Assembly (NCBI GenBank): GCA_030531335.1
Contig: JAUNNV010000029.1
Coordinates: 1 to 21,054 of the forward strand
Origin: Bacteroidales bacterium
GTDB taxonomy: Bacteria > Bacteroidota > Bacteroidia > Bacteroidales > Bacteroidaceae
Reading direction: 5' to 3'
Length of the DNA: 21,054 nt
Shown: positions 325 through 18,469 of the stretch, piece after piece
Layout: every line of letters starts with the position of its first letter
Position numbering within the stretch: position 1 is the stretch's first letter
The notes under the pieces: model-generated
Databases searched by the model: none
The model's input: only the letters and a program-made list of their open reading frames with translations
Told to the model about the DNA's origin: nothing
Position numbers and translations under genes: made by a program

Positions 325-331
325 CGCGCTG

Positions 332-339: not shown

Positions 340-351
340 GGAAGAAAATAC

Positions 352-359
352 TACTTTTG
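352..359 (+). promoter_or_regulatory. Bacteroidetes-type -7 promoter box (TAnnTTTG) for the HhH protein gene
   Basis: Plus-strand aaaa-TACTTTTG-cggc-ATG, so the motif lies 4 nt before the ATG at 364. This implies a leaderless or very short-leader mRNA, divergent from the box at 332-339. Confidence 0.35.
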
Positions 360-363
360 CGGC

Positions 364-2382: not shown

Positions 2383-2403
2383 ACAGTGTGTACTTTTGTC
2401 GTT

Positions 2404-2439
2404 GTCGTGGTTTGCCTGGTTTACGACATTATTTGTTTT
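2404..2439 (+). terminator. Weak candidate intrinsic terminator after the HhH gene
   Basis: gtcgt(2404-2408) ... acgac(2423-2427) is a 5-bp stem with a long loop, followed by tatttgtttt. The stem is short, so this is low confidence. Confidence 0.2.
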
Positions 2440-2481
2440 GTACGAGATGATAGGAATGTTATAATCTGCCGTAGTACATTT

Positions 2482-3849: not shown

Positions 3850-3856
3850 GACAAAT

Positions 3857-3904
3857 ATGATAATTTTGAATTATGAACTTATGATAATTAAGAATTATGA
3901 CTTG
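3857..3904. repeat. AT-rich imperfect 24-bp direct repeat x2 in the nfeD-flotillin spacer
   Basis: atgataattttgaattatgaactt (3857-3880) is followed by atgataattaagaattatgacttg (3881-3904). About 19 of 24 positions are identical, including the shared blocks atgataatt and aattatga. Confidence 0.6.
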
Positions 3905-3945
3905 CGAAGTTTGATGATCGAATCGAACAATCTTAACTCAAAATA

Positions 3946-4518: not shown

Positions 4519-4549
4519 GTTTTGATGTGTTTTCGTTGTTTTACGTTGG

Positions 4550-4557
4550 CAAATATA
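4550..4557 (-). promoter_or_regulatory. Candidate -7 promoter box (TATATTTG) for the nfeD-flotillin operon
   Basis: The minus-strand sequence ccc-TATATTTG-ccaacg lies about 32 nt upstream of the ATG at 4518. A TTTG lies about 20 nt further upstream at a -33-like position. Confidence 0.35.
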
Positions 4558-4591
4558 GGGACAAATAGATGAATTGCAAAACAAATCGGCA

Positions 4592-4624
4592 AGAAAAAAC
4601 CCATATCCTCGAGAAGGATATGGG
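4592..4624 (-). terminator. Rho-independent terminator ending the long minus-strand cluster
   Basis: A perfect 10-bp inverted repeat cccatatcct(4600-4609)/aggatatggg(4615-4624) has a 5-nt loop. On the minus strand it is followed by TTTTTT (plus aaaaaa 4594-4599). It lies about 45 nt downstream of the RING-FHA gene stop at 4670. Confidence 0.6.
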
Positions 4625-4669
4625 CTTGATATTAGAACTTGGGGTGAGGGAGGAAATGACGGATGGGAA

Positions 4670-7108
4670 TCACATTTCGACCAAATGGAAGGAGGTCTGT
4701 CCTATCTGGAAGCTTTCGCCATGCCAGAGTTGATATTCCTTTCCAAGCGCGAGATATTTGCCCCCCTTCAAGGTGATGCCATCTACGGCACAGATACGCA
4801 CTACGCCATGCCTTTCATAAACCTTCACCTGCACGGGAGCCACGTCGCTTTGGAGATCCCAAGTGAGTTGCAAGGCGCAATCGACCGACTTGCCGATGGT
4901 GACAACTGTGTGAGGTGATGAGCGTAGCCATTTGTAGAGTGCGATGTCCATATCCTTGACAGATCCCGACACGTGCAGGAAAAAATGCTTGCCGACCGAC
5001 AAGGGTTGAGTCATGCACACCGCTATGGCCACACCATAGCCGATGAACACGAACAATGTCTTCATTAGTTCCGAAACCGTCTGTAGTTCCGCAACCATTT
5101 CCCAAAACAAAGTGCTCGCCACACCCACGACAGCCAGCATCAGCCACTGTCGCCTTTTGAGCCACAGGCGCGAATGATAGGTGGATACACAAGCGATGAC
5201 AAGTGTAGTCAGCACCCAAGGCAGCAGGTCGAACACAAACGAGCCCTCGTAAAGATTGAGCACGACAAGAGTGGCATTGTTGAAAACGAACACAAAAAAC
5301 ACGAGGACACACGCCACGGATGCCCGGACGAACTGCCCAAACAACCTTATGTGCCAACTATACTTGAACAACGTGAAGATTGACAGGGCAAAGGTAAGGA
5401 CGAAACCGATGATGCAACCAAATGTGGGAAGTGTATATAAACGTGAGGAGATGATGTCCAAATCCTGGGGGGAAAATGGGGATACACCTTGCTCGTGAAA
5501 GCCCAACAAGGAAATCGCGATACCATCGAAGAGGTCGAGAAAGAGTGAGCGAAAATGTGGATCCCACACAACCAACCAACCGATCGACGCCGCAGCGATG
5601 GCTACAAGGATCCAGCGTGTGAAGGGGGATGCGTTTTGAGGGTCGAGCAAGTTGGAACGGTTGTAATAATGCGAGCCATCGGGGCAATGCCTTCCATGTT
5701 CGGGGCAATGTTGTCCGTTTTCATTCCAACACTCCAAATGCATCACATGGCTGCATCTTGCCACGATACGGTCGCCCACGGCAAAGGGAGCCTTACAGTA
5801 ATAACATTCGTCGGGGATGGCGATGGCATTGATGCTCATGCGCCCCCCTGTATAGGTGAGGACATACTTGCGCTGAAAGATGACATAGCGTACAAATGGT
5901 TCCAACAGTTGCAAGGCCACGTAGGCGAGCAACAAGACCAGCAAGGCGATAATGATGCCGCGTGAAGCGATGTGGCCGGGCGATTTGTACCCACCGGTAA
6001 CGATTGGCACGTCAATGCTTCCGCACGCATATTCCTTGGAGCACCGGGCAATCAGGCTGTCGTTCCGGTCGTGGAAACTCAATTCCAGCCTGCGCGAACA
6101 GCCGTAGTAGATTTTCCCATCGGGATTCTCGAGCCGGATGGCGAAATCGGGATAGCCAATGCCGAAGGACGCGAAATTGTGTTTGCGCAACTCGACGGCA
6201 CTCAAACCATCGATGACACCCCCCCCCGATTGCTGGCAGAACACCTGCATCATATCCTTGTCGTCGGTGGAACTGTTTCCAGAGTCGGTCGAGGGAGTAC
6301 ACACGTAGCAAATGGCGGGTGCGGAAAACGAGGTGTCGGCGAGTTGTTGTAGGATTTGAGCCTGCACCCAGTAGTGGTCGGGGTCGAGAGGCGTATTGTC
6401 CGTCTCGTCATACACATGGCTGTCCGACAGTATCGCGATGGTGCGGTATGCAGCCGAGTCGAGAGGTGTTCCGGTGCCTTTGCGCAGTTTGCCGAGCATG
6501 AAGTACAAGGCACGATACACGTAAGGAGGAAGTTTGGTGTCGGACACACGATATTTGGAATTGCCGTTTACGTAATTGTCGATTACGTATGGCGAGACCT
6601 CCATGATAGGCGACAACTCGCCTTCGGAAAGGATGAACGAGATAAACACATTCCCATCGCCATACAGACGTATCAGCGAACGGATGTAGTCGCGTTCCTT
6701 TTCAAGCATGTCGGACGATTGGCACAAATCGACCATCAGCAGCAACTTGAGTCCCAACTTGGCATTTTCGGAAGCCACCACGTTGTTGAAGGAAACGACA
6801 TGTGGATGGGTCGATTCTGACCAAGGCACGAACTGGCGTTTCAGCTCCTTCACTGTCATGTGGATCAAGGAGCTGTCCTCAAGTAGGTATTTGTCCAAAT
6901 CATGGGTAATGTCCAACTCCAAGCTTATCTGTTTCACGTCGGTTGAAACGTTCATCGAGCGTATGGCCAAGGCATGGGTCTCGTGTTCGACCGAAGAAGG
7001 ATTCAACTCCGTGAACCGACTGCACGAGGCAAGTAGCAGAATGTATGGTAGCCAGACAGCAAACTGGCTGAAACGACGGAAACAACAAATTACAGACGGT
7101 TTCATCAT
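4670..7108 (-). CDS. Multi-domain membrane protein: lipoprotein signal + periplasmic (possibly vWA-like) domain + TM + cytoplasmic RING-H2 zinc finger + ~6-7 TM helices + C-terminal FHA domain; putative membrane E3-like ligase
   Basis: The N-terminus MMKPSVICCFRRFSQFAVWLPYILLLASCS has a lipobox. TM1 is IIIALLVLLLAYVALQLL. The RING-H2 pattern is C-x2-C-x13-C-x-H-x2-H-x2-C-W-x6-C-x2-H (ECYYCKAPFAVGDRIVARCSHVMHLECWNENGQHCPEH), with a Trp after ligand 6 as in E2-binding RINGs. Hydrophobic helices follow. The C-terminal GKSVDCALQLTWDLQSDVAPVQVKVYERHGVVRICAVDGITLKGGKYLALGKEYQLWHGESFQIGQTSF fits the FHA consensus (G..x..C.L....S..HA.I...........). Domain calls are motif-based only. Confidence 0.75.
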   Translation of the reverse strand: MMKPSVICCFRRFSQFAVWLPYILLLASCSRFTELNPSSVEHETHALAIRSMNVSTDVKQISLELDITHDLDKYLLEDSSLIHMTVKELKRQFVPWSESTHPHVVSFNNVVASENAKLGLKLLLMVDLCQSSDMLEKERDYIRSLIRLYGDGNVFISFILSEGELSPIMEVSPYVIDNYVNGNSKYRVSDTKLPPYVYRALYFMLGKLRKGTGTPLDSAAYRTIAILSDSHVYDETDNTPLDPDHYWVQAQILQQLADTSFSAPAICYVCTPSTDSGNSSTDDKDMMQVFCQQSGGGVIDGLSAVELRKHNFASFGIGYPDFAIRLENPDGKIYYGCSRRLELSFHDRNDSLIARCSKEYACGSIDVPIVTGGYKSPGHIASRGIIIALLVLLLAYVALQLLEPFVRYVIFQRKYVLTYTGGRMSINAIAIPDECYYCKAPFAVGDRIVARCSHVMHLECWNENGQHCPEHGRHCPDGSHYYNRSNLLDPQNASPFTRWILVAIAAASIGWLVVWDPHFRSLFLDLFDGIAISLLGFHEQGVSPFSPQDLDIISSRLYTLPTFGCIIGFVLTFALSIFTLFKYSWHIRLFGQFVRASVACVLVFFVFVFNNATLVVLNLYEGSFVFDLLPWVLTTLVIACVSTYHSRLWLKRRQWLMLAVVGVASTLFWEMVAELQTVSELMKTLFVFIGYGVAIAVCMTQPLSVGKHFFLHVSGSVKDMDIALYKWLRSSPHTVVTIGKSVDCALQLTWDLQSDVAPVQVKVYERHGVVRICAVDGITLKGGKYLALGKEYQLWHGESFQIGQTSFHLVEM
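6219..6227. repeat. 9-nt homopolymeric C run (G9 on the coding strand) inside the RING-FHA gene
   Basis: Plus gacaCCCCCCCCCgat, coding TCG GGG GGG GGT (SGGG) within QSGGGVIDGLS. Confidence 0.9.
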
Positions 7109-7110
7109 TG

Positions 7111-8076
7111 TCAGATGGTGGGATATTCGTTATCGTTAAATTGTGTCATGGACTTGTACTGCTTCGCCGCTTTCTTGGCGGCCTTCAGAGCGGCATATTT
7201 GCTCTTCATCATTGAAACAAACATCAGGATGATGGCTACGGCAGCCAAACTCATCAAGGAATCCTTCAGATGTTGCATCAGAGGCACATACTTCGCCTGT
7301 TGCACCTTGTCGGATTGCGCCTTTATCTCGGCGAACAACTGGCTGAGGCTGTCCATACGATTCTTTAGCGAAGGCACCAGCAATGCGGCTTGGGTGGCCT
7401 GTTGAAATGTTTGCTGCAATTCGGCAAAGGCGATTTGTTCCTTGGCTTGCAGCTGTTGCAGCAGAGGAGCCGTCTTGGCGGTCAGCGACAGCCTCTGGGA
7501 TTCCGACAGATATTGACTGTACTGATGCCGTTTCGATTCCAGCAGTTTTTCGGCCCGTGTAATGTCCTCCATCGCCTGCAGTCGGGCTTTTTGGGCTGCA
7601 ATCGAGTCCGACACGACTTGGAAGGTCACCTGAAAAGCCGTGAACTTGTCCATCAGAATCTCGTTTTCCACAATGTCTTGTTGTCGTACTTGCGTATAGA
7701 TATTCCATTGTACATTCACATTCTGCAACATCCGATCCAGTCCTTTTAATTCTGTCATCTTGGCCTGCGAAATACTTTTCCCGATATTGAGCAGTGTGGA
7801 TATGTATGCGTCCATCTCGCCCATCGTGGCGTTGGATTGTCCGCTTGGATGCGATGTCGTGGGTAAGTCTGAATAGACATCGAACTTTGTGGGCGTAGCC
7901 CATACAGACATGGTAGCCGATATGGTCACAAGCAGGATGGTGCAGAATGAGTAAACAACTTTTGTCACAATTGATTTCCTGTTATTGGCTTCGCCCATAA
8001 CAGACTGCGTCTCGGCATAACCAAGGTAGGCTTGCCTCTGCTCTTGGCTTGCGCTGTTATTCAAATTCACTGACAT
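7111..8076 (-). CDS. Bitopic/two-TM coiled-coil membrane protein, function unknown
   Basis: The ORF 7111..8232 is trimmed to the first Met lying near the stop of the upstream gene (MSVNLNN... at 8076). The start is uncertain; alternatives are 8232, 8115 and 7998 (MGEANNRK...). It has TM segments VVYSFCTILLVTISATMSVWA and LMSLAAVAIILMFVSMM flanking a long Gln/Leu-rich coiled coil. It lies 2 nt upstream of the RING-FHA gene. Confidence 0.55.
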   Translation of the reverse strand: MSVNLNNSASQEQRQAYLGYAETQSVMGEANNRKSIVTKVVYSFCTILLVTISATMSVWATPTKFDVYSDLPTTSHPSGQSNATMGEMDAYISTLLNIGKSISQAKMTELKGLDRMLQNVNVQWNIYTQVRQQDIVENEILMDKFTAFQVTFQVVSDSIAAQKARLQAMEDITRAEKLLESKRHQYSQYLSESQRLSLTAKTAPLLQQLQAKEQIAFAELQQTFQQATQAALLVPSLKNRMDSLSQLFAEIKAQSDKVQQAKYVPLMQHLKDSLMSLAAVAIILMFVSMMKSKYAALKAAKKAAKQYKSMTQFNDNEYPTI

Positions 8077-9277
8077 GTTTGAAGAAATATTTCGCTGCTG
8101 TGTCGAAAATGCCATACGCACGACGCTGTTCTTCGTTGTATATGCCTTTTTCCTCAACACCTTGCTTGGTGACGTTGATGATGTCGCGACCCATAAAGTA
8201 GATATCGCGTCGTTCCAACTCATTTTTCGCAACCAGATTTTGCGCCACCAGTTTGTCTAATTGACGTGCCGCTCGGACAAGTGCTTCGGGCGAAATACCT
8301 GTGCCGTAGAGCACGCTGCCCTCTTCCGTCAGCTCTACCGGGACGGCGCATTTCAGGGATTCAATCGAATCCACGTAGTTGTTGTAACTGTCGCGCACCA
8401 TATTCACATCGGCACATGACGATTTCGTCTCTATCGGTTGGAATTTCGACAACAGAAATTCTTGATGTTGCTTGAACACGCCGACCTCCTCGGCGGATTC
8501 CACCTTGCCTGAAGGACATATCTGATGGAGCTTCCGATACGCTTTCCGGATATCCATCAACTTGGCTTTCATGACAGCCAACGCCTCTTGTTGACCATGG
8601 CAAGGATTGCGGGCCAATGCCACCCGACAAGTAAGGTCAAGATCGTGATCGAATACTATCTCGTATTCCCGTCCTTTCTGAGTGTCTTTCAACACATCCA
8701 CCACCATGATGTTGCGAATGCGCAACGTCACATCGGATGCCTCCGGATTCACCTTGAACCGTTGTGTCAAAATTTTCTGACTTAACTTCGGCAATGTCTG
8801 AGGCGAGTCTGTCGCACTTGTCGGCAGATAGGTAGCAGGACAGGCAATGGTGAGCGAGGCGGAGTTCGGTTCCACCCAGGCATTGATAAGGTGATGGCGG
8901 CGTTTCTTCCGATACGACTTATACACCGATTCTCTTAGGTAATATTTCGAATTAGGCTCTACCAGCACCTTATATTGCAATTTCTCGGCATGAAGCCGAC
9001 GTTTGCCAAGAAACGGATGGGTAAACACATCGTTGTAGGATACGTCCTGACGGAAAGCCATGAAATCGCGATTGCCAGACAACGTGAGAACCAACTCGTC
9101 GGCAGCCTCTTCGAAAGCAAGCGTCAGGTCAAGCTCCAAGCCTTTGTCGTCGAAGGCAATCTGTATTTTCTCCTGATAAGGCGTGTCGGCATCCACACGC
9201 ACGTTTTTGGTCTCTTGAGCCTGTGCCAGGGCAGCACAGCAGGCCATGAAAAGGCAGAAGAATTTAGTCTTGGTCAT
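8057..9277 (-). CDS. Secreted hypothetical protein (406 aa) with N-terminal signal peptide
   Basis: ATG at 9277; MTKTKFFCLFMACCAALAQAQ-ETKN is a signal peptide. A long ORF with mixed composition and several Cys. It overlaps the E2 gene end by 14 nt. No recognisable catalytic motif. Confidence 0.65.
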   Translation of the reverse strand: MTKTKFFCLFMACCAALAQAQETKNVRVDADTPYQEKIQIAFDDKGLELDLTLAFEEAADELVLTLSGNRDFMAFRQDVSYNDVFTHPFLGKRRLHAEKLQYKVLVEPNSKYYLRESVYKSYRKKRRHHLINAWVEPNSASLTIACPATYLPTSATDSPQTLPKLSQKILTQRFKVNPEASDVTLRIRNIMVVDVLKDTQKGREYEIVFDHDLDLTCRVALARNPCHGQQEALAVMKAKLMDIRKAYRKLHQICPSGKVESAEEVGVFKQHQEFLLSKFQPIETKSSCADVNMVRDSYNNYVDSIESLKCAVPVELTEEGSVLYGTGISPEALVRAARQLDKLVAQNLVAKNELERRDIYFMGRDIINVTKQGVEEKGIYNEEQRRAYGIFDTAAKYFFKHVSEFE

Positions 9278-9860
9278 AATATATCCAATTGTTTGGTTCT
9301 CCTTGTGTCCGAACCCAATAGGCTACTTTCAAATCCTCTGGGTAAGGAGGTTCGGGCAGTGCATGGTAGATTTCGTAGCGCAGATACAGTGCGATGCGTT
9401 CCACAGCCCATGCCAAACTGCTGTGTGTGTTGGGCATGTTCACACACACACGTCCTGCCAGGCTACCATGATACCCTATGTTGGGATGCCAAGGCAACGT
9501 GTCGCCCACAAAACGGAAGCAAGGCATAGCATCTACCTGAGGATAACGTTCGGGAAGTTTTATCTCCATCCGAAACTCATGGGCGAAAATAGGACTGCCA
9601 TCCACATTCACCCCACAGATACATTTTATAAAATAGTCTATCGAGTAGGCCGTAGGGATTCCTTCAGGGGTGGCATCGACCACTTGCATGGCGATGTCGT
9701 TGCGTTGTTTCACAAAGGCGGCAAGCTGCTCCCACTCGTAAAACAGTCGGTGTGCGCGTCCTCGAAGAGGCTTGTTCTGAAACCAGCTTGTCCCGGGCGA
9801 AGTCAAGGAAAGGGGTTTACCCTGGGAATGGATCGGGGATGAGGAAAATTGTGTCGCCAT
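9264..9860 (-). CDS. Ubiquitin-conjugating enzyme (E2/UBC-fold) homologue
   Basis: The UBC core motif is ...FRMEIKLPERYPQVDAMPCFRFVGDTLPWHPNIGYHGSLAGRVCVNM... (YP.xP, HPNI, G...C). It can be laid alongside UbcH5 ...[34 protein letters not shown]. An N-terminal RLFYEWEQL helix is present and LPEPPYPEDL lies downstream. The ATG at 9860 overlaps the Ubl gene end by 44 nt; an alternative TTG start lies at 9806. Confidence 0.8.
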   Translation of the reverse strand: MATQFSSSPIHSQGKPLSLTSPGTSWFQNKPLRGRAHRLFYEWEQLAAFVKQRNDIAMQVVDATPEGIPTAYSIDYFIKCICGVNVDGSPIFAHEFRMEIKLPERYPQVDAMPCFRFVGDTLPWHPNIGYHGSLAGRVCVNMPNTHSSLAWAVERIALYLRYEIYHALPEPPYPEDLKVAYWVRTQGEPNNWIYYDQD

Positions 9861-10140
9861 TGTTCACATTATAGTCGGCAAGCGTCTGTTCGGTTTTCCC
9901 AATGCGCGGCCGCATCACGCGAATCTCGTGCACGACCTCGTCTTCTTTCCCAAAGAAATAATCGAGGGGTGCTCCTGTGCTGTCGATGGAGGGAAAGTCG
10001 AATATCAGTCGGCCATCTTGTCCGGTTGAATGTTTCAGGTTGTTCATCAATGCGCCCAATGGGAGTTGCGGATTGATGACGCGGAACTTCACCTTTTTGT
10101 CCTTATAGACAATGTTAATGAAAAAATCGTCTTGGTGCAT
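9817..10140 (-). CDS. Ubiquitin-like (beta-grasp) protein ending in a C-terminal Gly
   Basis: The C-terminal 22 residues TLADYNVNNGDTIFLIPDPFPG match ubiquitin 55-76 [22 protein letters not shown] position by position (T,L,D,Y,N,I/V,T,I/L,L,I/V, terminal G). The stop codon follows the Gly directly. RLIF and a KVKFRVI beta-hairpin lie upstream. The ATG at 10140 is 23 nt after the tssF stop. Confidence 0.75.
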   Translation of the reverse strand: MHQDDFFINIVYKDKKVKFRVINPQLPLGALMNNLKHSTGQDGRLIFDFPSIDSTGAPLDYFFGKEDEVVHEIRVMRPRIGKTEQTLADYNVNNGDTIFLIPDPFPG

Positions 10141-10163
10141 GTTTCGTCAATGATGGTTGATGG

Positions 10164-11927
10164 TTATTTGCTACGCGAATCTAAGTCAATCTTCACTTGG
10201 ATGGGGCAGATGCCCGTAGTACGCACCTCCATGAGCCTTTGTAGGTGATTTTCGATACTGGCAAAATGTTTTCCCAACGCACGTTTCACATACATGTTGT
10301 CGTGGAGCACGATACCTACCACGATGCAATAAGCATGATAGCTACCTCGTGTAAGCACCTGCTTGTGCGTACGTATGGAGGCTATCATTTCCTGCTCTAC
10401 ATTGAACCGTGTGGCCAATTCCTGATAACAAAACAACTTTAGATCTGTTTCGGTGACAAGCCGGTCGTCGGTGGCTATGAAGTAGCGTGTAGCCGTCCTC
10501 ATGGCTTCCTCGGACAACAATTCGTCGTATCCTGGTTGAGGAATCGTCACTTGATGGGATTTGGACTGGTCGAAACCTGGGGGTACCACAAACACGGCAT
10601 CGGAGGTGAGCACACTGTTCACTACAGCTCCGTTAGTGGTCAGATAGCCGACATTGAGTGAAGTGTTTTCTGGGCTTTGTCGAAGGGTGTCGCCCCAACT
10701 ATCCTTCGAGCGTTCGTGAGGAATGCCGGCAAACATCAGATAGACACCCTCGTGCGAGGTTCGCAAATGTGGATGCGTGTGTTGCGACAACTCCTTCAGG
10801 TTGTTGCGCAGGTTGTGCATCACCATGTCGGTATATTCGTTGCCCATGGCCTGAAACGCATAATAGTCGGATGTGTATTTGTCGATGAGGCCCGACAACA
10901 ACCTGTGCAGCCTCCCCTCGTTGAACCTGTCGGCACCTATGCGCCGCACCTGTAGCCGGACATTGCCTAATAGTTGGTCCTCGTCGGGACGTAGCAGATG
11001 AAGAAACTGCCCATTGTTCTTGTCATCGATACGCTGTATAGGCGCATCGGCCGAGAGGGTGGCTGTTTTCACTTCGGCGTTCACTATCAAGGCGATGTTG
11101 ACAAGCAAATCGCTCTCTTTGAAAGAAAAGTTGTCGTCGATGCCGTCGAACTCGAAGGTGAGTTCCATGCGATCAATGGCATCGATATCGTCCATTTCAT
11201 CTACGACATACAGCAATAGGTTTTGTCGGGCATACAAATCCAGGGCGCAGAAGTTGCGATAGGCAGCCATGCCTTGGAACACGTTGCCCGAACGTACGGC
11301 TTGCGACTGATTGTAGAGCAACGTATCAAGCGAGAAACAGTCGGCACACGGCAGATTCGCAAAGTCCCACGGTGCGATGAGGGGTATTTCCCTATCGCTC
11401 ATGCTTACACGCAGGCCATGGAAATCCTGGTTCTTCAAGGCAAACGCAAGGCCTTTTAGGCTTTTCACCTTGTGTGGAAAGAACATATTGACTTGCCATC
11501 TCCTTCCATCCACGCGCCTCAGCCCATCCATCTCCACCTGTATGGCTTTGGTCTTGAGCAAGGGGATGAAGTTGAAGTTGTTGTTGTCGGTTCCTTTTAA
11601 GATGAATCTCATGGACGAATCGACATCCATTTCCGTCACATTGGGCATCAGAGCCAATTGCACGACGGCTGTGGCTGGAATGGCCTTGACTGGTTCGTTC
11701 ACGCAAAGCATGTTCTGGAACTCGTCGAGCAGCTCCGTCCGCAATGCCTCCAACTCGTTGTCCGACTCGTTGAATTGATAGGCCAGTGCCGTAATCAGGA
11801 ACTTGAACAGCGGATCCGAATCCAGTCCCTCAAGACTGTCGCTTCTGTTGTTGCGGTGCCAAATATCCACACATTGGGCCATCAGCTCCTTGGCGCGTTG
11901 TCTTATTTCAAATATGTTCTGTCTCAT
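10164..11927 (-). CDS. tssF: TssF-like baseplate protein (phage gp6 / baseplate-J family)
   Basis: 587 aa, directly after the gp25-like gene. The N-terminal block DPLFKFLITALAYQFNESDNELEALRTELLDEFQNMLCVNEPVKAIPATAVVQL resembles the TssF signature DP.VERLLEGFAFL...L.DEFPE...LL..L.P...P.PS..IVQF. The size and gene order (tssE-tssF) fit. Confidence 0.75.
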   Translation of the reverse strand: MRQNIFEIRQRAKELMAQCVDIWHRNNRSDSLEGLDSDPLFKFLITALAYQFNESDNELEALRTELLDEFQNMLCVNEPVKAIPATAVVQLALMPNVTEMDVDSSMRFILKGTDNNNFNFIPLLKTKAIQVEMDGLRRVDGRRWQVNMFFPHKVKSLKGLAFALKNQDFHGLRVSMSDREIPLIAPWDFANLPCADCFSLDTLLYNQSQAVRSGNVFQGMAAYRNFCALDLYARQNLLLYVVDEMDDIDAIDRMELTFEFDGIDDNFSFKESDLLVNIALIVNAEVKTATLSADAPIQRIDDKNNGQFLHLLRPDEDQLLGNVRLQVRRIGADRFNEGRLHRLLSGLIDKYTSDYYAFQAMGNEYTDMVMHNLRNNLKELSQHTHPHLRTSHEGVYLMFAGIPHERSKDSWGDTLRQSPENTSLNVGYLTTNGAVVNSVLTSDAVFVVPPGFDQSKSHQVTIPQPGYDELLSEEAMRTATRYFIATDDRLVTETDLKLFCYQELATRFNVEQEMIASIRTHKQVLTRGSYHAYCIVVGIVLHDNMYVKRALGKHFASIENHLQRLMEVRTTGICPIQVKIDLDSRSK

Positions 11928-11943
11928 CGTTATGCACCCTTCA

Positions 11944-12387
11944 TTAGTTCCATACGTTTATGATGTTGCTGTACTGAAAAGGCTCGTTTGTATCGCCCAA
12001 CAGGCCGGTTATTTCCACCAATACTTGCCGTTGGTCGCGGCGGTAGTTCATTACTACCTTTGGTGAGAGCAACCGAGGCTCATACACCTCGATGCTATGC
12101 TTCAGGTCGGAGGCGAATGTCTGTAGGTTCTTCGAGGAGCCGGAAACTTTCTTCTTGTATATTGGATTCCGGCTGTCACGAGAATCGAACACCGTCCCCT
12201 CGTTCTCGTCGAAAATCTCAAATCTCAACGTGGAGAACACAAAGCCATAATCCGGATCGATGGGCAAAGAGCCCAACGGTGTGTCCATCAGGAGCTGTAG
12301 CGAATCCCTGACCGATTGCTCCAACCCGTTCGACTGATGGAGGAACCTGCCCGACACTACCTGTAAAGGACTTTGCAAGTATTTCAT
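11944..12387 (-). CDS. tssE: TssE / gp25-like baseplate wedge protein (GPW_gp25 family)
   Basis: 147 aa. SVRDSLQLLMDTPLGSLPIDPDYGF and IEVYEPRLLSPKV match the gp25/TssE motifs (..NL..LL.T..G.....P.fG / I..fEPRL). The ATG at 12387 overlaps the upstream stop in an ATGA. Confidence 0.85.
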   Translation of the reverse strand: MKYLQSPLQVVSGRFLHQSNGLEQSVRDSLQLLMDTPLGSLPIDPDYGFVFSTLRFEIFDENEGTVFDSRDSRNPIYKKKVSGSSKNLQTFASDLKHSIEVYEPRLLSPKVVMNYRRDQRQVLVEITGLLGDTNEPFQYSNIINVWN

Positions 12388-13589
12388 ATCAATGGTGTGA
12401 AAACATCTTCCGGCTGATGTTCCTCCTTGGCCACGAGACCAGACAGCGCATTGAACAATGCAGGGTAAAGTTCCTGATATAGCCTATCGTGCAATGCTTC
12501 GTACAGCACTTCTTTCAGCTTCGGACGAAGTCGATCGTCCACGTATGCCTGCAGTTTTTCCGTGATTGTCGCGGTCAGTTCAGGCATCACCACGTCGCGA
12601 AGTTCCATGCGGATTTTTTCGTCTATTTGCTGCTTCAATTGTTCAAGAAGTTGTGTGTACAACTCTCTCTTCAGCGCCTCCACATCGATGTGGCGACTTT
12701 CCGTCACCACATCGTCCATGGACAGTAGCAAGGCGTTCATGAATTCTTTGAGCCACGACAGGTAGGCTCGGATATGGTTTGTGTGAGGCACGCGGCGAGG
12801 GTCGGCGGCCAGCTCGCGCGTGGGTTCTTGTCCTGAGCCCTGCCGAAGGACTTGTTGGCCTCCCAATCCCAATCGGATGTGGTAATCCAAGGCTTGATCC
12901 GTTTCGCGCAACAGTCGCACAAGCTCCACTACCGACTCCTTGCCGGTGAGGCTCTGTAGCCGGAAACACAGATGTAACAAGGTGCGTTTGCCGTCACCAT
13001 CCTCCATGTTGCGGTGGGTAGCCAGCTTCGTGAGTAGTTCCACATACATGCTTACGAACTCTCCGAAAGCCTTGTGCGAGGCTGTCGAGATCATGGGAGG
13101 CACATACGAGGCATCCACATTGAGCAGGTCGCCCTCTACGTAAAGCCTCTTCAGCGGCAGTACGTCCAAACTTTCGTCGGCACGTTCCAACTCGTCCAGC
13201 GAATGCAGCGAGAGCTCGTAAACGGGAGCCTTGTAGGGTATGCCATCGCGTTCGAAACAATGTGTTTTCCCATTGGCAGGGCCGACGCACACAAAACATT
13301 CCGGCAACGGTTGCGACACGATGGTCAGCGTGAGGTCGTCATCTACGCTGAGCACGGCCCCCGATGGCAACAATGCCGTAAGCCTCAGATTGTTCATCTC
13401 GAAGGTGTTGCCCACAAAAGCGCCCTCAACGTGTAGTGGGTACATGGGGAGAATGCCCATGCCGACACTCCCTATGGCGGCGCGGAGCAACAGTTGCTGA
13501 CGGTTGTCGAAGTCGTGTTGCTGATGGACGAAGACCCCAGAGGTGAGCTCCATCCCTGGTTGCCAATGTATATTTGCGTTGTAATACAT
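12384..13589 (-). CDS. tssK: TssK-like baseplate protein (N-terminal shoulder domain) with C-terminal coiled-coil region
   Basis: The N-terminus NIHWQPGMELTSGVFVHQQHDF...LLRAAIGSVGMGIL resembles the TssK start (W.EGM.L.PQHFQQ.D...LAR.G...WG). 401 aa, 4-nt ATGA overlap with tssE. The C-terminal half is helical/coiled-coil, so this is an atypical TssK and only moderately confident. Confidence 0.55.
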   Translation of the reverse strand: MYYNANIHWQPGMELTSGVFVHQQHDFDNRQQLLLRAAIGSVGMGILPMYPLHVEGAFVGNTFEMNNLRLTALLPSGAVLSVDDDLTLTIVSQPLPECFVCVGPANGKTHCFERDGIPYKAPVYELSLHSLDELERADESLDVLPLKRLYVEGDLLNVDASYVPPMISTASHKAFGEFVSMYVELLTKLATHRNMEDGDGKRTLLHLCFRLQSLTGKESVVELVRLLRETDQALDYHIRLGLGGQQVLRQGSGQEPTRELAADPRRVPHTNHIRAYLSWLKEFMNALLLSMDDVVTESRHIDVEALKRELYTQLLEQLKQQIDEKIRMELRDVVMPELTATITEKLQAYVDDRLRPKLKEVLYEALHDRLYQELYPALFNALSGLVAKEEHQPEDVFTPLI

Positions 13590-13631
13590 GCCTTTATGTC
13601 ATTTTATGATGGATTTTGGTTTCGCGACTCA

Positions 13632-14432
13632 TCATTCATAGTCCTTAATTACGATATTGTAGTTCATGATTTTCCCTTCCTCCGACTTGCCCTTGGCTCC
13701 TGCCTCAAACAGGCAGTCGAAAGGAATGAACCGGCTGTGCACAAATGCAAGCATACGTTCCCATCGTTTGGTAAGGTCGGCGTATGCGGTGGCTGTCAGA
13801 CCATCCACACAAATGTCGTAATGCACTTTTTGCATCCAAAAGCGTGTGTTGTCGCATTCGTTGTACGCCGACAAACGCATCCGCACCGGATAACCCGTGA
13901 CAACGCTCAGCAATGATTTTACAAACGACAAGTTGCCACGGAGTTTGGCCACGTATGGCAGCAACACCGCCACCTTGCGCACATACTCGTCCGTTTCCGC
14001 CTCCAAGTCGAACTTGTAGGATGTTTTTAACACGAATTCGAGCTTGCGGGCCAGCAAGTCGGCCACGATGTGTTCCCGCTTCAGCTTCTGCCTGAACATG
14101 AACGAGTCGATGGGTAGGAAAGTTTCTGACAGTGTCCTTATCCGCTCATGCAACTGTTGGGCAAGCTGTTTGAAATCGCCTTTTCGTTTCCTTCCGAAAC
14201 GGTCGGATGCCTTCAGCTCATCCTCCGATCCTAAAAACAAGGGAGGCAGATAGTGTAGGAAGCCGTTGCGCGAAAGCGATACGATTGCTTCCTTCGGATT
14301 GATGGACAACACATCCGGCGCATAGTTCCTGCTGAAGGAACCTTTCTGATAGGCCAGCCACTTGTCTTCCAGCTCTGGATACAAATAGTTGAGCAACAGT
14401 TCCGCACTTATCTCGTGCCTGTCGGTTGTCAT
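13632..14432 (-). CDS. Hypothetical cytoplasmic protein (266 aa), translationally coupled downstream of E1
   Basis: The ATG at 14432 overlaps the E1 stop (ctATGAcaa). There is no signal peptide or TM segment and no motif I can name. It lies 42 nt upstream of the tssK-like gene. Confidence 0.6.
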   Translation of the reverse strand: MTTDRHEISAELLLNYLYPELEDKWLAYQKGSFSRNYAPDVLSINPKEAIVSLSRNGFLHYLPPLFLGSEDELKASDRFGRKRKGDFKQLAQQLHERIRTLSETFLPIDSFMFRQKLKREHIVADLLARKLEFVLKTSYKFDLEAETDEYVRKVAVLLPYVAKLRGNLSFVKSLLSVVTGYPVRMRLSAYNECDNTRFWMQKVHYDICVDGLTATAYADLTKRWERMLAFVHSRFIPFDCLFEAGAKGKSEEGKIMNYNIVIKDYE

Positions 14433-15478
14433 AGTTCCACGTACCTATATCCTGTTGGGGTCTTTATTCTCACAATGTCGTGTGCTGGAATGCCCAACGC
14501 AGCCAATGGCAGCGTGGGGTAGGGGAACGAGGTGTCTATCTCCGCATATTCGTGTTGGCATAGTTTCGCCATCGGTATGGTCGAAAGTCGTGGATGTTGC
14601 TTCACGAAGCCAGCCATTCGGCGTGCCGGCAGCATTGCTTCCGTCTGTTCGCCCGTCTCTCGATTCTCTACATAATCCACAAAGGCATCGTTGAGCACCA
14701 CAGTGCCAATCCGCAGGAGTGATTTCAGCGAGTGTTCCCTGACTACTTCAATAGGCTCCCATTGCTCGTGCAGCACGCAATCGTCATCCCACGCCTCGAA
14801 CACGGCTTTCCGCACACTCAGGTTTTCGCCATCGTAGTAGCACATGTTTCGTTCCACTGGCACGCCTGCAATCACTTTCAATGCTTCGGCTGCTTGCCAG
14901 GCTCCTATCACGCTGGCCGCCACTGATGTGGTAGGGGCATGGCCAGCCGCTTCCATTTGCCGTATCACGCCCGAACAAGGCATCCGTCGGCGCAACTCGT
15001 CCAGTCCTTCCGTCCCGAGGCCACAAGCGTAGCAGTTCACGCCGGGCACAAACACCCGCATCGTCCCCTCCATGCCGATGATGCCACCGTCAATCCATGT
15101 CTTTCCTGCCCTCGTACAGAGGCGCTGGATGCAATAGCGGGTCCACCGGCTATCGACGCATCCCATCACCACGTTCATCTGCCGTATCAATGCCAATCCC
15201 ACATCGTATGCCACATCGCCATGGATGGCCTGCACATCGACGGTGGCGTTGATGCCTCTCAGCGCGTCCTTCACCACATCCACTTTGCGCCGACCCACAT
15301 CGACTGGCCTGAACAGGATGCTTCGTGTGAGGTTGCCCTGTTCCACCACATCGAAATCGACCACCACCAGATGCCCCACTCCAAGCAGTACGAGGTTTTT
15401 GAGCACCTCGTTGCCCAGGGCCCCACATCCCACCACCATGATGCGGGCATCGCGCAGCTTGTCTTCTTCGATGTTCAT
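14429..15478 (-). CDS. E1-like ThiF/MoeB-family adenylyltransferase (ubiquitin-activating-enzyme-like)
   Basis: The ORF 14429..15778 is trimmed to MNIEEDKLRDARIMVVGCGALGNEVLKNLVLLGVGHLVVVDFDVVEQGNLTR (Rossmann GxGxxG plus an acidic D..D motif typical of E1/ThiF). Downstream are CYAC (CxxC) and MPCSGV (candidate catalytic Cys in a PxCT-like context). The 100 codons upstream of this Met are Gly/Arg/His/Cys-rich junk. The ATG at 15478 overlaps the upstream stop (ggATGAac). Confidence 0.8.
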   Translation of the reverse strand: MNIEEDKLRDARIMVVGCGALGNEVLKNLVLLGVGHLVVVDFDVVEQGNLTRSILFRPVDVGRRKVDVVKDALRGINATVDVQAIHGDVAYDVGLALIRQMNVVMGCVDSRWTRYCIQRLCTRAGKTWIDGGIIGMEGTMRVFVPGVNCYACGLGTEGLDELRRRMPCSGVIRQMEAAGHAPTTSVAASVIGAWQAAEALKVIAGVPVERNMCYYDGENLSVRKAVFEAWDDDCVLHEQWEPIEVVREHSLKSLLRIGTVVLNDAFVDYVENRETGEQTEAMLPARRMAGFVKQHPRLSTIPMAKLCQHEYAEIDTSFPYPTLPLAALGIPAHDIVRIKTPTGYRYVEL

Positions 15479-16200
15479 CCGATTGGTAGTTTGTCCTGAA
15501 TGCTGTTGAAGACCTTGTCGAGCTTCATGCTCTGTCCGCCTTTTGTGATGTCCGTTGTGGATGTATCCTTCGCATTGCCGGCCACATGGCGGTTGTAGGC
15601 TTCCTCGATTTCCTTTTTCTTGTCGTTGTAGAGTCGTTCCATCATTTCGGAATACGTGTCGAAAATTTCCTGCAACTTGTCCTTGGCCTCTTTTACCGCC
15701 TCTTCCGAGCTTCCTACAGTGCGACTGGCTACCGCAGACGCAGCCCTCGTCTTTTCTGCCTCGATTTTCGTCTTGCATTCCGAGTAGAGTGCATCGGTGG
15801 CCGTGTCGAGTAAATCCTTGCGTTCCTTATTTACATCGGGCATCGTGAGCAGTAGGTATTTGGCATCGATGCCATTCTCATCGTCTGCCCCAGGAGCAGT
15901 TTCGAGCGTCACCTTGAATTCCGGATGCACTTCCGTGATGCCTTTGTAAATGCAGGAGAAGTACGCCGAATCCTTTGGATATACATTCATCATGTGTTTT
16001 TCGTTCTCATCCTCGTGCACTAAAATGTCGGCCACGTCCTCAATGCGTTTGTCCATGCCACCATACACCATCTCCACTCCCAGCAACGAAGAGGGATCGG
16101 CCTTGACACACACGTTGCAGAACAGGTACGACATGCTTGCCACATGTCCCAGCATCCTGTTCTGTGTTTCTATCAATGCGACTTCTACCGATCGTTTCAT
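15475..16200 (-). CDS. Hypothetical protein (241 aa; N-terminal globular part + acidic coiled-coil C-terminus), translationally coupled upstream of E1
   Basis: ATG at 16200; the stop overlaps the E1 ATG. No JAB/MPN HxH motif was found. The C-terminal region is Lys/Glu-rich (EAEKTRAASAV...EAVKEAKDKLQEIFDTYSEMMERLYNDKKKEIEEAY). Confidence 0.6.
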   Translation of the reverse strand: MKRSVEVALIETQNRMLGHVASMSYLFCNVCVKADPSSLLGVEMVYGGMDKRIEDVADILVHEDENEKHMMNVYPKDSAYFSCIYKGITEVHPEFKVTLETAPGADDENGIDAKYLLLTMPDVNKERKDLLDTATDALYSECKTKIEAEKTRAASAVASRTVGSSEEAVKEAKDKLQEIFDTYSEMMERLYNDKKKEIEEAYNRHVAGNAKDTSTTDITKGGQSMKLDKVFNSIQDKLPIG

Positions 16201-16239: not shown

Positions 16240-16629
16240 CTATTTGCCCTCTGCAAGGCACGCATTGCCGGGGAAGTTCACGGAGATGTTTCCACCCCAG
16301 TTGCACATACATTTGCAGTTGTCGAGCAGTGCAGGCATTTGTTTTACCATTTCTTTTCCTCCAGGCATCCATGGAGCGGCTATCACTGGCATGCAGGGCA
16401 TGGGCGTAAGTGCTCCGAATGCTGCAGCCGTGGCCGCAGCCACCTGAGGATTCGACAAGCTTTGGCACATGCCGAAAGGCATGATGTTCATCATCGGCTT
16501 GTTGTCGCCGATGTTTCCTATGGGTTTCCCCTGTACCTTTGGTCGGGTGGGATCCACCACCATGAAGTTGGAAGGAGCCATCCCGAACGAGCACTGCAGG
16601 ATTGCTCCGGCCGTTACGAATTTTCCCAT
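16240..16629 (-). CDS. DUF4280 PAAR-like spike-tip protein
   Basis: 129 aa. VTAGAILQCSFGMAPSNFMVVDPTRPKVQGKPIGNIGDNKPMMNIMPFGMCQSLSNP matches the DUF4280 pattern as I recall it (GA.L.CSFG..PS.L.V...V.G.P.A...D..P..NI.PFG.C). It lies 8 nt after the preceding gene. Confidence 0.75.
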   Translation of the reverse strand: MGKFVTAGAILQCSFGMAPSNFMVVDPTRPKVQGKPIGNIGDNKPMMNIMPFGMCQSLSNPQVAAATAAAFGALTPMPCMPVIAAPWMPGGKEMVKQMPALLDNCKCMCNWGGNISVNFPGNACLAEGK

Positions 16630-16638
16630 TGTATTTTT

Positions 16639-18423
16639 TTATTTTCCTACTTCCTCTTCCTTCATCTTTGCCGACGCTTTTCCTGGTGTCGAGGCTGCCG
16701 GCACGGCCACACCGTCTGTGATGTTCTGCGACTTGAACGACGAAGAGGCCTCCAAATTCTTGAACACGCCCTTGGGAGCCGTGGTGTCGCCCTTGATGTC
16801 GGTCTTGCCTTCTATGGTGGTGTCGCCCTTCAGCGCATTCTTGCCTCCACCTGCCGTAAGGTTTCCGCCTTCGAGCGTAATCACTGCCTTTCCTTCTCCC
16901 TGCTGCAGTTCGGTGGTGGTGTTGCCCATGATGCCCACTTGCTCGGCAGCTATCTGCACCAGTTTGCCCTTGGTTTTCTTGTCCTTGCTGCCAGCAAGCA
17001 GCTTTTCCGCCACAAGTACCATCTGCGAACTGGCGGCCAGTGCCTTGTCCGTGCGTTTCTCCTTATCCACATCCATGGCTGCCACCTGAATGTTCTTGGC
17101 GTTGAGTGTCAGTTCGCCTGTAGCCATTCCTTCGGTGTCGGTAGCTTCTATCTTCATTTTCTCTGCCCTGACAAGCAGGGTGCCATCCTTGGTCAGTGCC
17201 TTCTCCTGCCGTTTTTTGTCCTTCAGTTCCTCGTCGATGGCCTGTATGGTGACATTCTTCGAGGTAATCACCACGTTGCCCAAAGCGGGTATGTCGCCTT
17301 TTTCGCCCTTCTCGTCGAGTTGGGCGGAGGCTGTGGAGAGGTTCACCTCCTGTAGGTTGACGTTCAGTGTGCTGTCGGCCATCAGTGCGCCCTTCGTGTC
17401 GTGTGCCACCACGTCGATGTGAGGCATTTGTACATACAATCCGGCTTCGGCGTTCTGGCGCAGGTTGCCGTCGCCGTCGGTCGAGACCATGCTTACGAAT
17501 TCGGAACGCAGGGCGATGTGCGACGAGGTGGTGTTCTTGTCGAAATCGGCACTGGCTTTGCCGAGCTCCTCTTTGGTGTCCTTCAGGGCCTGTGCCTTCC
17601 GATTGAGTTCGGCTTCGGACGAAAGCAACCTGATGTAGTCGGTCAGTGAGGAGTAAAGCATCCGTTCCAGGTCCTGGAACTTGTCGGCCAGATCCGACAA
17701 CTCGGGTTGGTTCGCCCGCAGGTGTTCCTCCGTGTCGTTCAGTGTGTCCTGGCTTTTTATGAGCTTTTCTATGTCGTCCAGGTTTTTCAGCACCGTCTTC
17801 TTGGCATTGGCAGCCAACTTCGCAATGTCGCCACTGTATTTTTCCAAATCTTTCACACGCTCGTCGATGGCGGCGGTCTGTAGTTTGTTCGACGGTGTGG
17901 CGCTTATCGCCACATAAGAGTCCGCATGTATGTCGATGCCGGTGCTACAGCTGCCTGCTTCGGCCACGAACGCGCCGGTGGTGTCGTTGCTCTGCAGGGT
18001 GATGGCGCGAGCTTGGTTCACGATTTCGGAGTTCATGCACACCACGTTCTCCATGCCGTCGGTACCGGGATCCACGGCGATGTGGCGAATGCTGGCTGCT
18101 CTCGACACGATGCTTCCCCCTATGTCGGGAGATCCTGTACCCTCCAGGCTTACGCGGTTTCCGCGTATCACCACCGTGCCGCCTCCGCCATGCTCTCCCA
18201 TCAGCTCGCCGCTGCGGTTCACGTTGCCGATGATGACCGTCGGAGCCGAAAGAATGAGGCATTGGTCGTCGCGCACGTATTTCACGCCGCTCACCGTGTG
18301 ATGGATTTCCTCCCTCAGCCGTCGCACCTCGCTTTTTTGCTTGCGGATTTCCGCAACGTCCTTTCTCACGCTGCTTTCGAAAGCCTCCAGTGCCTGCTTC
18401 AGGTCGTCAAGAATATATGCCAT
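16639..18423 (-). CDS. Coiled-coil + Gly-rich beta-helix-like repeat protein; candidate spike/needle or effector carrier (not a canonical VgrG)
   Basis: The ORF track starts at a TTG at 18432; the ATG at 18423 (MAYILDDLKQ...) is the likelier start. An N-terminal coiled coil is followed by SAPTVIIGNVNRSGELMGEHGGGGTVVIRGNRVSLEGTGSPDIGGSIV... repeats. Internal coiled coils and a C-terminal Gly/Lys/Thr-rich repeat follow (GGNLTAGGGKNALKGDTTIEGKTDIKGDTTAPKG). The antisense ORFs 16339..17355 and 17926..18648 are rejected. Confidence 0.65.
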   Translation of the reverse strand: MAYILDDLKQALEAFESSVRKDVAEIRKQKSEVRRLREEIHHTVSGVKYVRDDQCLILSAPTVIIGNVNRSGELMGEHGGGGTVVIRGNRVSLEGTGSPDIGGSIVSRAASIRHIAVDPGTDGMENVVCMNSEIVNQARAITLQSNDTTGAFVAEAGSCSTGIDIHADSYVAISATPSNKLQTAAIDERVKDLEKYSGDIAKLAANAKKTVLKNLDDIEKLIKSQDTLNDTEEHLRANQPELSDLADKFQDLERMLYSSLTDYIRLLSSEAELNRKAQALKDTKEELGKASADFDKNTTSSHIALRSEFVSMVSTDGDGNLRQNAEAGLYVQMPHIDVVAHDTKGALMADSTLNVNLQEVNLSTASAQLDEKGEKGDIPALGNVVITSKNVTIQAIDEELKDKKRQEKALTKDGTLLVRAEKMKIEATDTEGMATGELTLNAKNIQVAAMDVDKEKRTDKALAASSQMVLVAEKLLAGSKDKKTKGKLVQIAAEQVGIMGNTTTELQQGEGKAVITLEGGNLTAGGGKNALKGDTTIEGKTDIKGDTTAPKGVFKNLEASSSFKSQNITDGVAVPAASTPGKASAKMKEEEVGK

Positions 18424-18469
18424 CTTTTTCAATTTAGGGTTGTCCTATCAATAGGCTTTGTCGAGGTTG

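Follow-up and report, generated by a model that had tools for sequence, protein, structure and literature searches.

Protein tagging in which an E1 and an HPN-type E2 act with a RING E3 is regarded as an invention of eukaryotes and archaea, and ubiquitin-type tagging in bacteria has, to our knowledge, been tied so far only to antiphage defence. The E1/E2/RING cascade of Caldiarchaeum subterraneum has been reconstituted (PMC5654768), and Burroughs et al. 2011, as cited in PMC11601596, place RING E3s in operons that also encode a ubiquitin-like protein (Ubl), an E1 and an E2. A ubiquitin-like domain also features in a type VI secretion system (T6SS) subtype, T6SSiii, the canonical form of which always has tssN between tssK and tssG; TssN combines five transmembrane (TM) helices with a cytoplasmic ubiquitin-like domain that docks TssK (PMC10781749). 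Here we describe a locus of a Bacteroidales bacterium in which genes for a Ubl, an E1, an E2 and a RING-finger membrane protein lie inside a T6SS operon. The window analysed is one entire contig of 21,054 bases (JAUNNV010000029.1) from a metagenome-assembled NCBI genome, the right edge of which falls inside a VgrG-like open reading frame (ORF), and its minus strand carries every real gene from 21054 down to 4670. It is best explained as an operon's distal two thirds, the operon being that of a distinct T6SS of gut and rumen Bacteroidales that is related to T6SSiii and has a thioester-type Ubl cascade as a core part.

The module proteins all carry the annotation 'hypothetical' at present (the 812-residue RING protein is locus tag Q4E55_03430). 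As judged from their sequences and models, the four genes make up a complete and apparently competent E1/E2/RING/Ubl set, and the four roles that an initial sequence-only reading had assigned are all present where it placed them:

14429..15478, minus strand: E1, a ThiF/MoeB-type adenylating enzyme with a crossover-loop Cys168 (Pfam ThiF 1.4e-51; invariant motifs)
9817..10140, minus strand: Ubl, ubiquitin fold with a free C-terminal Gly107 (AlphaFold2 (AF2) model, Foldseek, DP[FI]PG terminus)
9264..9860, minus strand: E2, UBC fold with HPN (125-127) and catalytic Cys139 (UQ_con, alignment, profile matches in the PDB)
4670..7108, minus strand: vWA-7TM-RING-FHA lipoprotein, a putative E3-like membrane anchor (motifs, topology, AF2 model, fold matches)

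The E1 is separated from the Ubl-E2 pair by four baseplate genes, and the RING gene follows two genes for envelope proteins. For the comparisons below, one genome per species was scanned for the E2 family, and the window's proteins were compared by tblastn with 83 E2-anchored loci; metagenome loci anchored on TssC were compared separately.

The catalytic motifs are invariant in alignments of 27-34 homologues of each protein. In addition to Pfam ThiF, the E1 matches the NCBIfam ThiF/MoeB/UbaA models. Its mechanically called ORF extends to 15778; 33 orthologues begin at 15478, as the sequence-only reading had it, and from there the gene overlaps the stop of the preceding one by 4 nt. The invariant features of the E1 alignment are GCGALGNE, D109, a CxxC...CxxH set (C149/C152/C234/H237) and Cys168. 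The last of these sits in 'RRMPCSG', between the zinc pairs, the place of the reactive crossover-loop Cys in ThiF, MoeB and canonical E1s. The protein, of ~350 residues, has a single adenylation domain and a C-terminal domain of ~110 residues that finishes in 'LTLxQLGIPxxDVLxV'. This C-terminal domain is suspected to be an E2-recruiting ubiquitin-fold domain; aligned with the Ubl profile by hhalign, it shows a weak match to the last strands of the Ubl (E 0.035).

The Ubl itself has 107 residues and almost no Pfam signal (0.035). Its family profile aligns with the last strand of ubiquitin, however, and when its AF2 model (pLDDT 87.3) was compared with the PDB by Foldseek the top 50 matches were all ubiquitin-fold proteins at probability 1.0, among them ubiquitin variants, the Bil Ubl (8tyx, 8tyz), Caldiarchaeum ubiquitin (6fnn), SUMO2 and NEDD8. 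Every copy (82/82) ends in DP[FI]PG directly followed by the stop codon, and thus the reactive glycine is exposed without processing. The family comprises 543 clusters, all of ~105 residues. Within the E2-anchored loci the Ubl is the best conserved protein of a block of ten genes (66-92% identity); the E1 and E2 stand at ~50%, the RING protein and the baseplate proteins at ~30-40%. Such conservation fits what would be expected of a modifier with many partners.

The E2 matches Pfam UQ_con at 4.8e-6 and 26.7 bits, just under the cut-off of 27. In 27 homologues PWHPNI...GRVC.N is invariant (H125-P126-N127 and C139), and the best solved relatives found with the family profile in the PDB are eukaryotic UBE2K and Ubc13. 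A profile search of 1.84 billion representatives returned 228 matches, and the T6SS E2 falls in a wider bacterial clade of HPN-type E2s. No homologue was found by tblastn among 72,556 plasmids or 50,697 phage genomes, and an exact look-up of the window's own E2 in a contig index gave no match. The remoter members of the wider clade, some of them from Bacteroidales metagenome-assembled genomes (MAGs), are proteins of 230-960 residues with added domains; one of 629 residues (P0266) joins the E2 to a Crinkler-N/Ubl-like region, another of 531 residues (P0275) joins it to DUF4419.

The layout of the RING protein was derived from its AF2 model (pLDDT 76.8), hydropathy and two fold searches. It has a lipoprotein signal whose lipobox Cys29 is invariant, a vWA domain in the periplasm, TM1 at 384-402, a RING-H2-like finger at 433-485, six further TM helices at 495-699 and an FHA fold at 709-811. 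Hydropathy and the model put the finger and the FHA fold in the cytoplasm, and the fold searches recovered both the vWA and the FHA folds. In Pfam searches of the family, zf-RING_2 was matched by 33/33 proteins, Prok-RING_1 by 32/33 and FHA by 19/33, with best E-values of 1.3e-4 for a RING model and 2.9e-8 for FHA. The ligands C435-x2-C438-x13-C452-x-H454-x2-H457-x2-C460-x7-C468-x6-C475 are invariant, seven Cys/His positions having RING-H2 spacing, from which the final pair departs. The FHA family motif is IG(K/R)S...(I/V)AP.(Q/H)A, in which Ala always takes the place of the phosphothreonine-contacting Ser; the Asn-Gly loop is lacking. As the family does not conserve the canonical Ser, Arg and Asn that bind phosphothreonine (residues 728-812), a role as phospho-reader should not be assumed. 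By its motifs the domain resembles the phospho-independent FHA of the type III secretion system (T3SS) ring protein YscD, not those of Fha1 or RNF8. Phospho-dependent regulation through the FHA was set aside on the same residues.

The RING matches all fall under the Pfam curated cut-offs, and the ubiquitin fold was recognized by AF2 and Foldseek, not by Pfam.

The remaining six genes of the ten-gene block lie between the E1 and RING genes:

13632..14432, minus strand: g266, a soluble conserved protein of 266 residues (collinear in 75 loci; no TM segment)
12384..13589, minus strand: g401, TssK-like baseplate protein of 401 residues (three weak, concordant matches)
11944..12387, minus strand: TssE / gp25 baseplate wedge (GPW_gp25 3.8e-10; TIGR03357 TssE 2.6e-7)
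10164..11927, minus strand: g587, a TssF-sized protein of 587 residues encoded right after tssE (collinear in 80 loci)
8057..9277, minus strand: g406, 406 residues with an N-terminal signal-like segment (collinear in 82 loci)
7111..7998, minus strand: g373, a coiled coil of ~295 residues with N- and C-terminal TM segments (collinear in 80 loci)

The labels tssK-like, tssE and tssF of the sequence-only reading fared unequally. That of tssE stands on its gp25 match. The TssK-like label is carried by weak matches (E ~1e-3 to 1e-4) to TIGR03353 (9.2e-4), to PF05936 T6SS_VasE (7.3e-4, by the orthologue in locus L014) and, by hhalign, to TssK of E. coli Sakai (E 1.8e-4, probability 49%, 173 columns from residue 5); its profile found no match among PDB sequences. 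The tssF label reflects position, size and one motif: g587 shares with E. coli Sakai TssF a single collinear N-terminal stretch (residues 33-100 versus 33-99, E 0.055) and has no match in Pfam or, by profile, in the PDB. By position g266 is possibly TssG; it gave no Pfam match, no PDB profile match and no hhalign similarity to TssG of E. coli Sakai. The tssK-like gene lies 42 nt from the adjacent g266; all loci keep this order, and neither product has a TM segment. On the envelope side, g406 has no family match in Pfam or NCBIfam and is presumed to be an envelope component. The mechanical ORF of g373 reaches 8232, homologues being of ~290 residues, and its TM segments lie at residues 88-110 and 324-342 in the numbering of the long ORF. 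Pfam gave no Tss matches for g406, g373 or the RING protein.

The order E1-g266-TssK-like-TssE-g587-Ubl-E2-g406-g373-RING is constant in the 83 loci as far as the contigs reach. Members of the block are collinear in 73-82/83 loci, the shortfall being almost wholly at contig ends. Of the species genomes scanned, 177 contain the E2 family, and the best 80 loci are all really Bacteroidales. The hosts are Prevotella/Xylanibacter, Bacteroides, Parabacteroides, Alistipes, Paludibacteraceae, Millionella, Mediterranea and Caecibacteroides, although a few bear mis-binned MAG names. Several are cultured isolates, and culturable carriers include Xylanibacter ruminicola D31d, Parabacteroides distasonis An897 and An863, Prevotella sp. 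ne3005, Millionella massiliensis and Mediterranea massiliensis. In the reverse test, TssC-anchored loci hold the E1, Ubl and E2 given enough downstream DNA, with the exception of two (L108 and L118). Collinearity in both the E2-anchored and the TssC-anchored loci excludes a chance juxtaposition. Thus the earlier suggestion of an integrated module, as opposed to a neighbouring island, holds in every related locus, and linkage to baseplate genes, which that reading wished to see surveyed, is found in 83/83 E2-anchored loci.

Two kinds of departure from this pattern were observed. In L108 and L118, TssC, TssD, DUF4280 and PEGA genes are followed by ~7 kb of unrelated ORFs, which could represent an insertion, a rearrangement or a decayed system. 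In L010, a locus from a MAG labelled Alistipes putredinis (1-8000), the block is complete except for the E1 between DUF4280 and g266.

The related loci also supply the parts of the secretion system that lie beyond the window. In Xylanibacter ruminicola D31d the order upstream is TssC (PF17541, 4.9e-100), TssD, TssD, DUF4280, PEGA protein, E1, and the RING gene is followed downstream by TssD, a 161-residue gene, VgrG and the gene for a 597-residue protein. Two or three TssD (Hcp) genes are present in related operons, with TssC and a 154-residue TssB-sized gene upstream; none of these is in the window. The TssC-anchored metagenome loci show the operon opening with a ClpV-like AAA+ ATPase (AAA_2 2.5e-58, TssH model 1.2e-144) and the TssB-sized gene, upstream of which gene content varies, while the VgrG of L001 and L014 contains Phage_base_V. 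The presence of ClpV, TssC, the TssB-sized gene, Hcp and VgrG in the same operon identifies a T6SSiii-related system. Between DUF4280 and the E1, 59 loci carry a protein of ~420 residues with a terminal PEGA domain (for example L014 3148-4398). It is missing from the clade of the window, L004 and L005, where a paralogue of ribosome-recycling factor (RRF) directly precedes the E1.

These data suggest the following mechanism. The E1 would adenylate Gly107 of the Ubl, take the Ubl onto Cys168 and pass it to Cys139 of the E2. The cytoplasmic RING finger of the vWA-7TM-FHA lipoprotein would then bring the E2~Ubl to the inner membrane. The operon has no envelope proteins other than the RING protein, g406, g373 and, in most loci, the PEGA protein, and these are therefore taken to be its envelope anchor; the RING lipoprotein, g406 and g373 would form an anchor that replaces the TssN-centred complex of canonical T6SSiii. 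Within this assembly the YscD-like FHA domain may hold a partner T6SS component beside the RING, and the Ubl would be ligated to a lysine of a T6SS component, likely the TssK/TssF/TssG/TssE baseplate or the anchor itself. Ligation may license docking of the baseplate to the membrane, or mark used or contracted parts for ClpV-dependent recycling, and the Ubl, once covalently attached, may substitute for the absent ubiquitin-like docking domain of TssN. The target and the consequence of ligation are the least certain of these steps.

We regard it as slightly better than an even bet that a dedicated Ubl conjugation module acts on T6SS parts at the anchor, and for any single target the chances are much lower. 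The fuller proposal, of a contractile secretion machine that is assembled, licensed or recycled by its own eukaryote-like E1-E2-RING cascade, with a polytopic envelope anchor as E3 and the Ubl replacing the TssN domain, is offered tentatively, as we judge it somewhat more apt to be wrong than right. Several points weigh against the mechanism set out above. In L010 the E1 is missing from inside the block, and may lie elsewhere or have been lost. The RING matches are all below the Pfam curated cut-offs and the last ligand pair, C468-x6-C475, is atypical. The anchor role of the RING protein is suggested by its domains and by gene position, and g587 and g266 are candidates for TssF and TssG, with both identities unproven. 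Scans of the block, of the other window genes and of genes from neighbouring loci turned up no JAB or other peptidase domain; the block thus encodes no deconjugating enzyme, and a reversible regulatory cycle is not evident. The system is set apart from one with TssN/O/P/Q/R by gene position and description, not by sequence. Here it should be emphasized that NCBIfam has no models that recognize this TssC or TssD, so that its silence on TssN-R is uninformative. Finally, all that lies downstream of the apparent competence of the enzymes is inferred, the conjugates, thioesters and target being predicted.

It could be argued that the module serves cargo loading, with the Ubl ligated to an effector, VgrG, the PAAR-like protein or Hcp, or that the Ubl is itself a delivered toxin or tag. 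Indeed the module shares its operon with VgrG, a PAAR-like gene, variable cargo-like genes such as that for a BNR protein, and multiple Hcp genes, and Bacteroides fragilis secretes a ubiquitin homologue that antagonizes other strains. The Ubl and E2 genes, however, keep their place between the tssF-sized gene and those for the envelope proteins, away from the mobile VgrG/cargo part of the operon. The Ubl retains 66-92% identity across families, unlike effectors, and the E3-like finger appears, from topology and the AF2 model, to be tethered to the inner membrane of the producing cell. We therefore consider cargo loading unlikely.

An alternative is that the Ubl is a non-covalent adaptor, like the TssN ubiquitin-like domain or YukD/EccD of type VII secretion systems (T7SS), and that the E1, E2 and RING proteins are scaffolds or chaperones that do no chemistry. 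Ubiquitin-like domains are docking modules in T6SSiii and in T7SS (PMC10781749), and the lack of both a deubiquitinating enzyme in the block and a tssN at its canonical place would be in keeping with a purely structural role. Such a role is difficult to reconcile with the invariance of all the residues required for chemistry, namely the E1 nucleotide motif, D109 and Cys168, the E2 HPN and Cys139, and the Ubl Gly, since inactive relatives normally lose their catalytic residues. The Cys is replaced by Ser in Bub E2s, with a changed mechanism (PMC11601596). On balance we find the structural role quite unlikely.

The sequence-only reading also raised the possibility of a self-contained antiphage module that hitch-hikes in the locus; such a module would resemble Bil and attach its Ubl to tail proteins of phages during infection. 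The characterized bacterial E1/E2/Ubl systems, Bil and type II CBASS, serve against phages, and the target of Bil is a phage tail protein (PMC11601596); T6SS parts are homologues of phage tails, and the PADLOC E1-E2 models match the E1 at 1e-17. This last match reflects generic ThiF similarity, however, and the PADLOC E2 model matches the E2 only at 8e-4. Moreover, the genes are interleaved with baseplate genes and never apart from them in 83 loci, there is no JAB peptidase, the single 350-residue adenylation domain of the E1 is unlike BilD, the loci have no defence-island context and variable flanks, and the E2 is absent from the phage and plasmid collections. A riding defence module is consequently very unlikely. 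Membership of a known defence system was also considered and rejected, PADLOC having given generic ThiF matches and a marginal E2 match. It is barely credible that a ThiS/MoaD-type sulfur-carrier or cofactor system became linked to T6SS genes by accident: the best NCBIfam matches of the E1 are ThiF and MoeB adenylyltransferases, but sulfur transfer has no place for a UBC-fold E2 with HPN and Cys or for a RING finger, the block contains no rhodanese, ThiG or MoaE partner, and the Ubl ends in Pro-Gly instead of the usual Gly-Gly and is structurally closest to ubiquitin, SUMO and the Bil Ubl.

The conjugation module is accompanied in the window by further genes of the operon, which closes with a terminator:

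19784..21054, minus strand: C-terminal part of a VgrG-like spike, cut by the contig end (open frame; VgrG match)
18470..19768, minus strand: BNR/sialidase-like secreted protein (BNR_2 9.7e-16)
16639..18432, minus strand: g597, conserved protein of 597 residues (adjoins VgrG in 49 loci)
16240..16629, minus strand: PAAR-like DUF4280 spike-tip protein (DUF4280 1e-30; NCBIfam T6SS_IglG 7.7e-10)
15475..16200, minus strand: RRF paralogue (Pfam RRF 4.8e-12)
4597..4627, minus strand: intrinsic terminator closing the operon (14-bp stem, 5 G-C pairs, then TTTTCTT)

The 597-residue protein, which has no sequence match in Pfam or the PDB, had been taken for the spike. The true spike is the VgrG encoded by ORF 19784-21054, which matches residues 770-836 of the 1254-residue VgrG of L014, a protein that carries Phage_base_V. 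The G+C content is 0.42 at 20001-21000, the VgrG C-terminal region, versus 0.50-0.56 elsewhere in the window, which fits a variable, exchangeable spike extension. The BNR gene is inserted between this region and the 597-residue gene in the window and in L084, the nearest relative and a locus of the window's own clade, which reaches only 5 kb further past VgrG. It had no tblastn match in L001-L083, the closest relative among them, L004, included, and its product may be a clade-specific cargo or effector. The divergent RRF paralogue, whose family profile matches Thermus thermophilus RRF (1eh1) over its full length at 1e-12, is kept in at least 54/83 loci with an invariant H92-P93-E94; its gene is the one that overlaps the E1 start by 4 nt.

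A terminator had been claimed at 4592-4624, and a strong one was indeed located at 4627-4597 on the minus strand. The tight packing proposed for the genes (4-nt overlaps, gaps below 45 nt) was found, except at the g406/g373 junction and where the Ubl and E2 genes overlap by 44 nt. Beyond the terminator, at 2482-4584 on the minus strand, lie an NfeD-like gene and an SPFH/Band 7 gene, which are probably a separate membrane-scaffold unit outside the T6SS operon. In L084 the Band 7 gene occupies the equal position, after an ORF of 190 residues. At the left end of the window two long ORFs overlap on opposite strands, 34-2382 (plus) and 499-2289 (minus). The former includes an internal start resembling a signal peptide and matches helix-hairpin-helix weakly (6e-4); neither has a counterpart in the related loci.

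The full-text literature that was searched contains no E1/E2/Ubl set linked to a T6SS or a contractile injection system, in agreement with the sequence-only reading, which knew of no Ubl set embedded in a secretion-system operon; the set may nevertheless be listed in Burroughs 2011. Ubiquitin is nowhere mentioned in a 2026 review of T6SS accessory factors. The feature is real, strongly conserved and absent from the literature searched, and we rate it as a T6SS subtype into which a ubiquitin-type cascade is integrated and whose anchor differs. If the proposed mechanism is correct, this would be the first case in bacteria of an endogenous ubiquitination that regulates a macromolecular machine and does not serve defence; it would define a new T6SS subtype and reveal a different envelope anchor. 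Ubiquitin-type tagging would then be a housekeeping part of a weapon of abundant gut and rumen Bacteroidales (Prevotella/Xylanibacter, Bacteroides, Parabacteroides, Alistipes), and a genetically tractable bacterial model for membrane-located, RING-dependent ubiquitination would become available. A mechanistic link would, in addition, be offered between true conjugation and the ubiquitin-like domains that serve T6SSiii and T7SS for non-covalent docking.

As a secretion system, the locus is closest to T6SSiii, which it resembles in its TssC (PF17541) and TssD (PF17642), which are Bacteroidota-specific Pfam families; in having ClpV, VgrG, TssE and a TssK-like gene in one operon of Bacteroidales hosts; in an envelope lipoprotein with vWA, as in TssR; and in a ubiquitin-fold element encoded with baseplate genes, as in the TssN domain. 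In contrast with T6SSiii, no TM protein occupies the tssN place, a judgement that concerns this place and not whole genomes. The ubiquitin-fold element is a free protein of ~105 residues that ends in Gly and comes with an E1 and an E2; the vWA lipoprotein is fused to seven TM helices, a RING finger and an FHA fold. The RRF paralogue and, in most loci, the PEGA protein are further differences. It is possible that the vWA part of the RING protein and the PEGA protein are analogues of TssR and TssP, respectively. A cytoplasmic FHA fold on an inner-membrane component of an injection machine is also found in YscD/PrgH (T3SS) and Fha1/TagH (T6SSi), and the eukaryotic ligases RNF8 and CHFR likewise combine FHA and RING in one polypeptide. 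The phosphothreonine-binding residues expected from Fha1 and RNF8, however, are not conserved here, and no PpkA/PppA kinase-phosphatase pair was seen in the loci.

The Bil and Bub systems similarly encode a bacterial Ubl, E2 and E1 together, and the fold of the present Ubl is near that of BilA (8tyx, 8tyz). The module also brings to mind Bil, which tags phage tail tips with its Ubl; the tail-tip protein modified belongs to contractile or non-contractile tails and is a homologue of T6SS parts. Bil and Bub, however, include a peptidase (JAB or BubE) but no E3, the E1 BilD has tandem domains, and the oxyesters of Bub, on Ser of its E2 and Tyr of its E1, differ from the chemistry implied by the invariant E2 Cys139 and E1 Cys168. 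Those systems are located in defence islands or mobile elements, whereas the present set is inside a T6SS operon. The Pfam scan of the window genes found no match to DUF6527 of the Bub (6E/DUF6527) system. Identity with Bil or Bub was rejected in view of the lack of a peptidase, the presence of an E3-like protein, the single-domain E1 and the Cys chemistry.

The belief, expressed in the sequence-only reading, that bacterial Ubl operons lack a RING E3 proved to be mistaken, as comparative genomics has placed RING E3s in Ubl/E1/E2 operons (PMC7159879). In the vWA-MoxR 'FtsH ternary' conflict systems (Kaur et al. 2020, PMC7159879), the operon that encodes a vWA domain also supplies a Ubl, an E1, an E2 and a prokaryotic RING E3, and a vWA domain is likewise combined here with a complete Ubl-conjugation set in one bacterial operon. 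The JAB, Ubl-E2 fusion, MoxR ATPase and caspase-like effectors of those systems, which are predicted to act in conflict, are nevertheless absent. In the operons of Caldiarchaeum subterraneum and of Burroughs, Iyer and Aravind 2011, the JAB/Rpn11 component is likewise without a counterpart here. The present Ubl requires no processing, and its last residues are Pro-Gly. The RING lies in a large polytopic membrane protein instead of a small soluble one, and the genes are interleaved with those for secretion. Those operons, however, have the same four roles and, as here, an HPN-Cys E2 of the eukaryotic UQ_con type; the RING finger weakly matches Prok-RING_1, and the Ubl is structurally near Caldiarchaeum ubiquitin (6fnn). 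Among the known systems, the cascade is closest to the eukaryote-like prokaryotic ubiquitin operons, that of Caldiarchaeum and the bacterial sets predicted in 2011.

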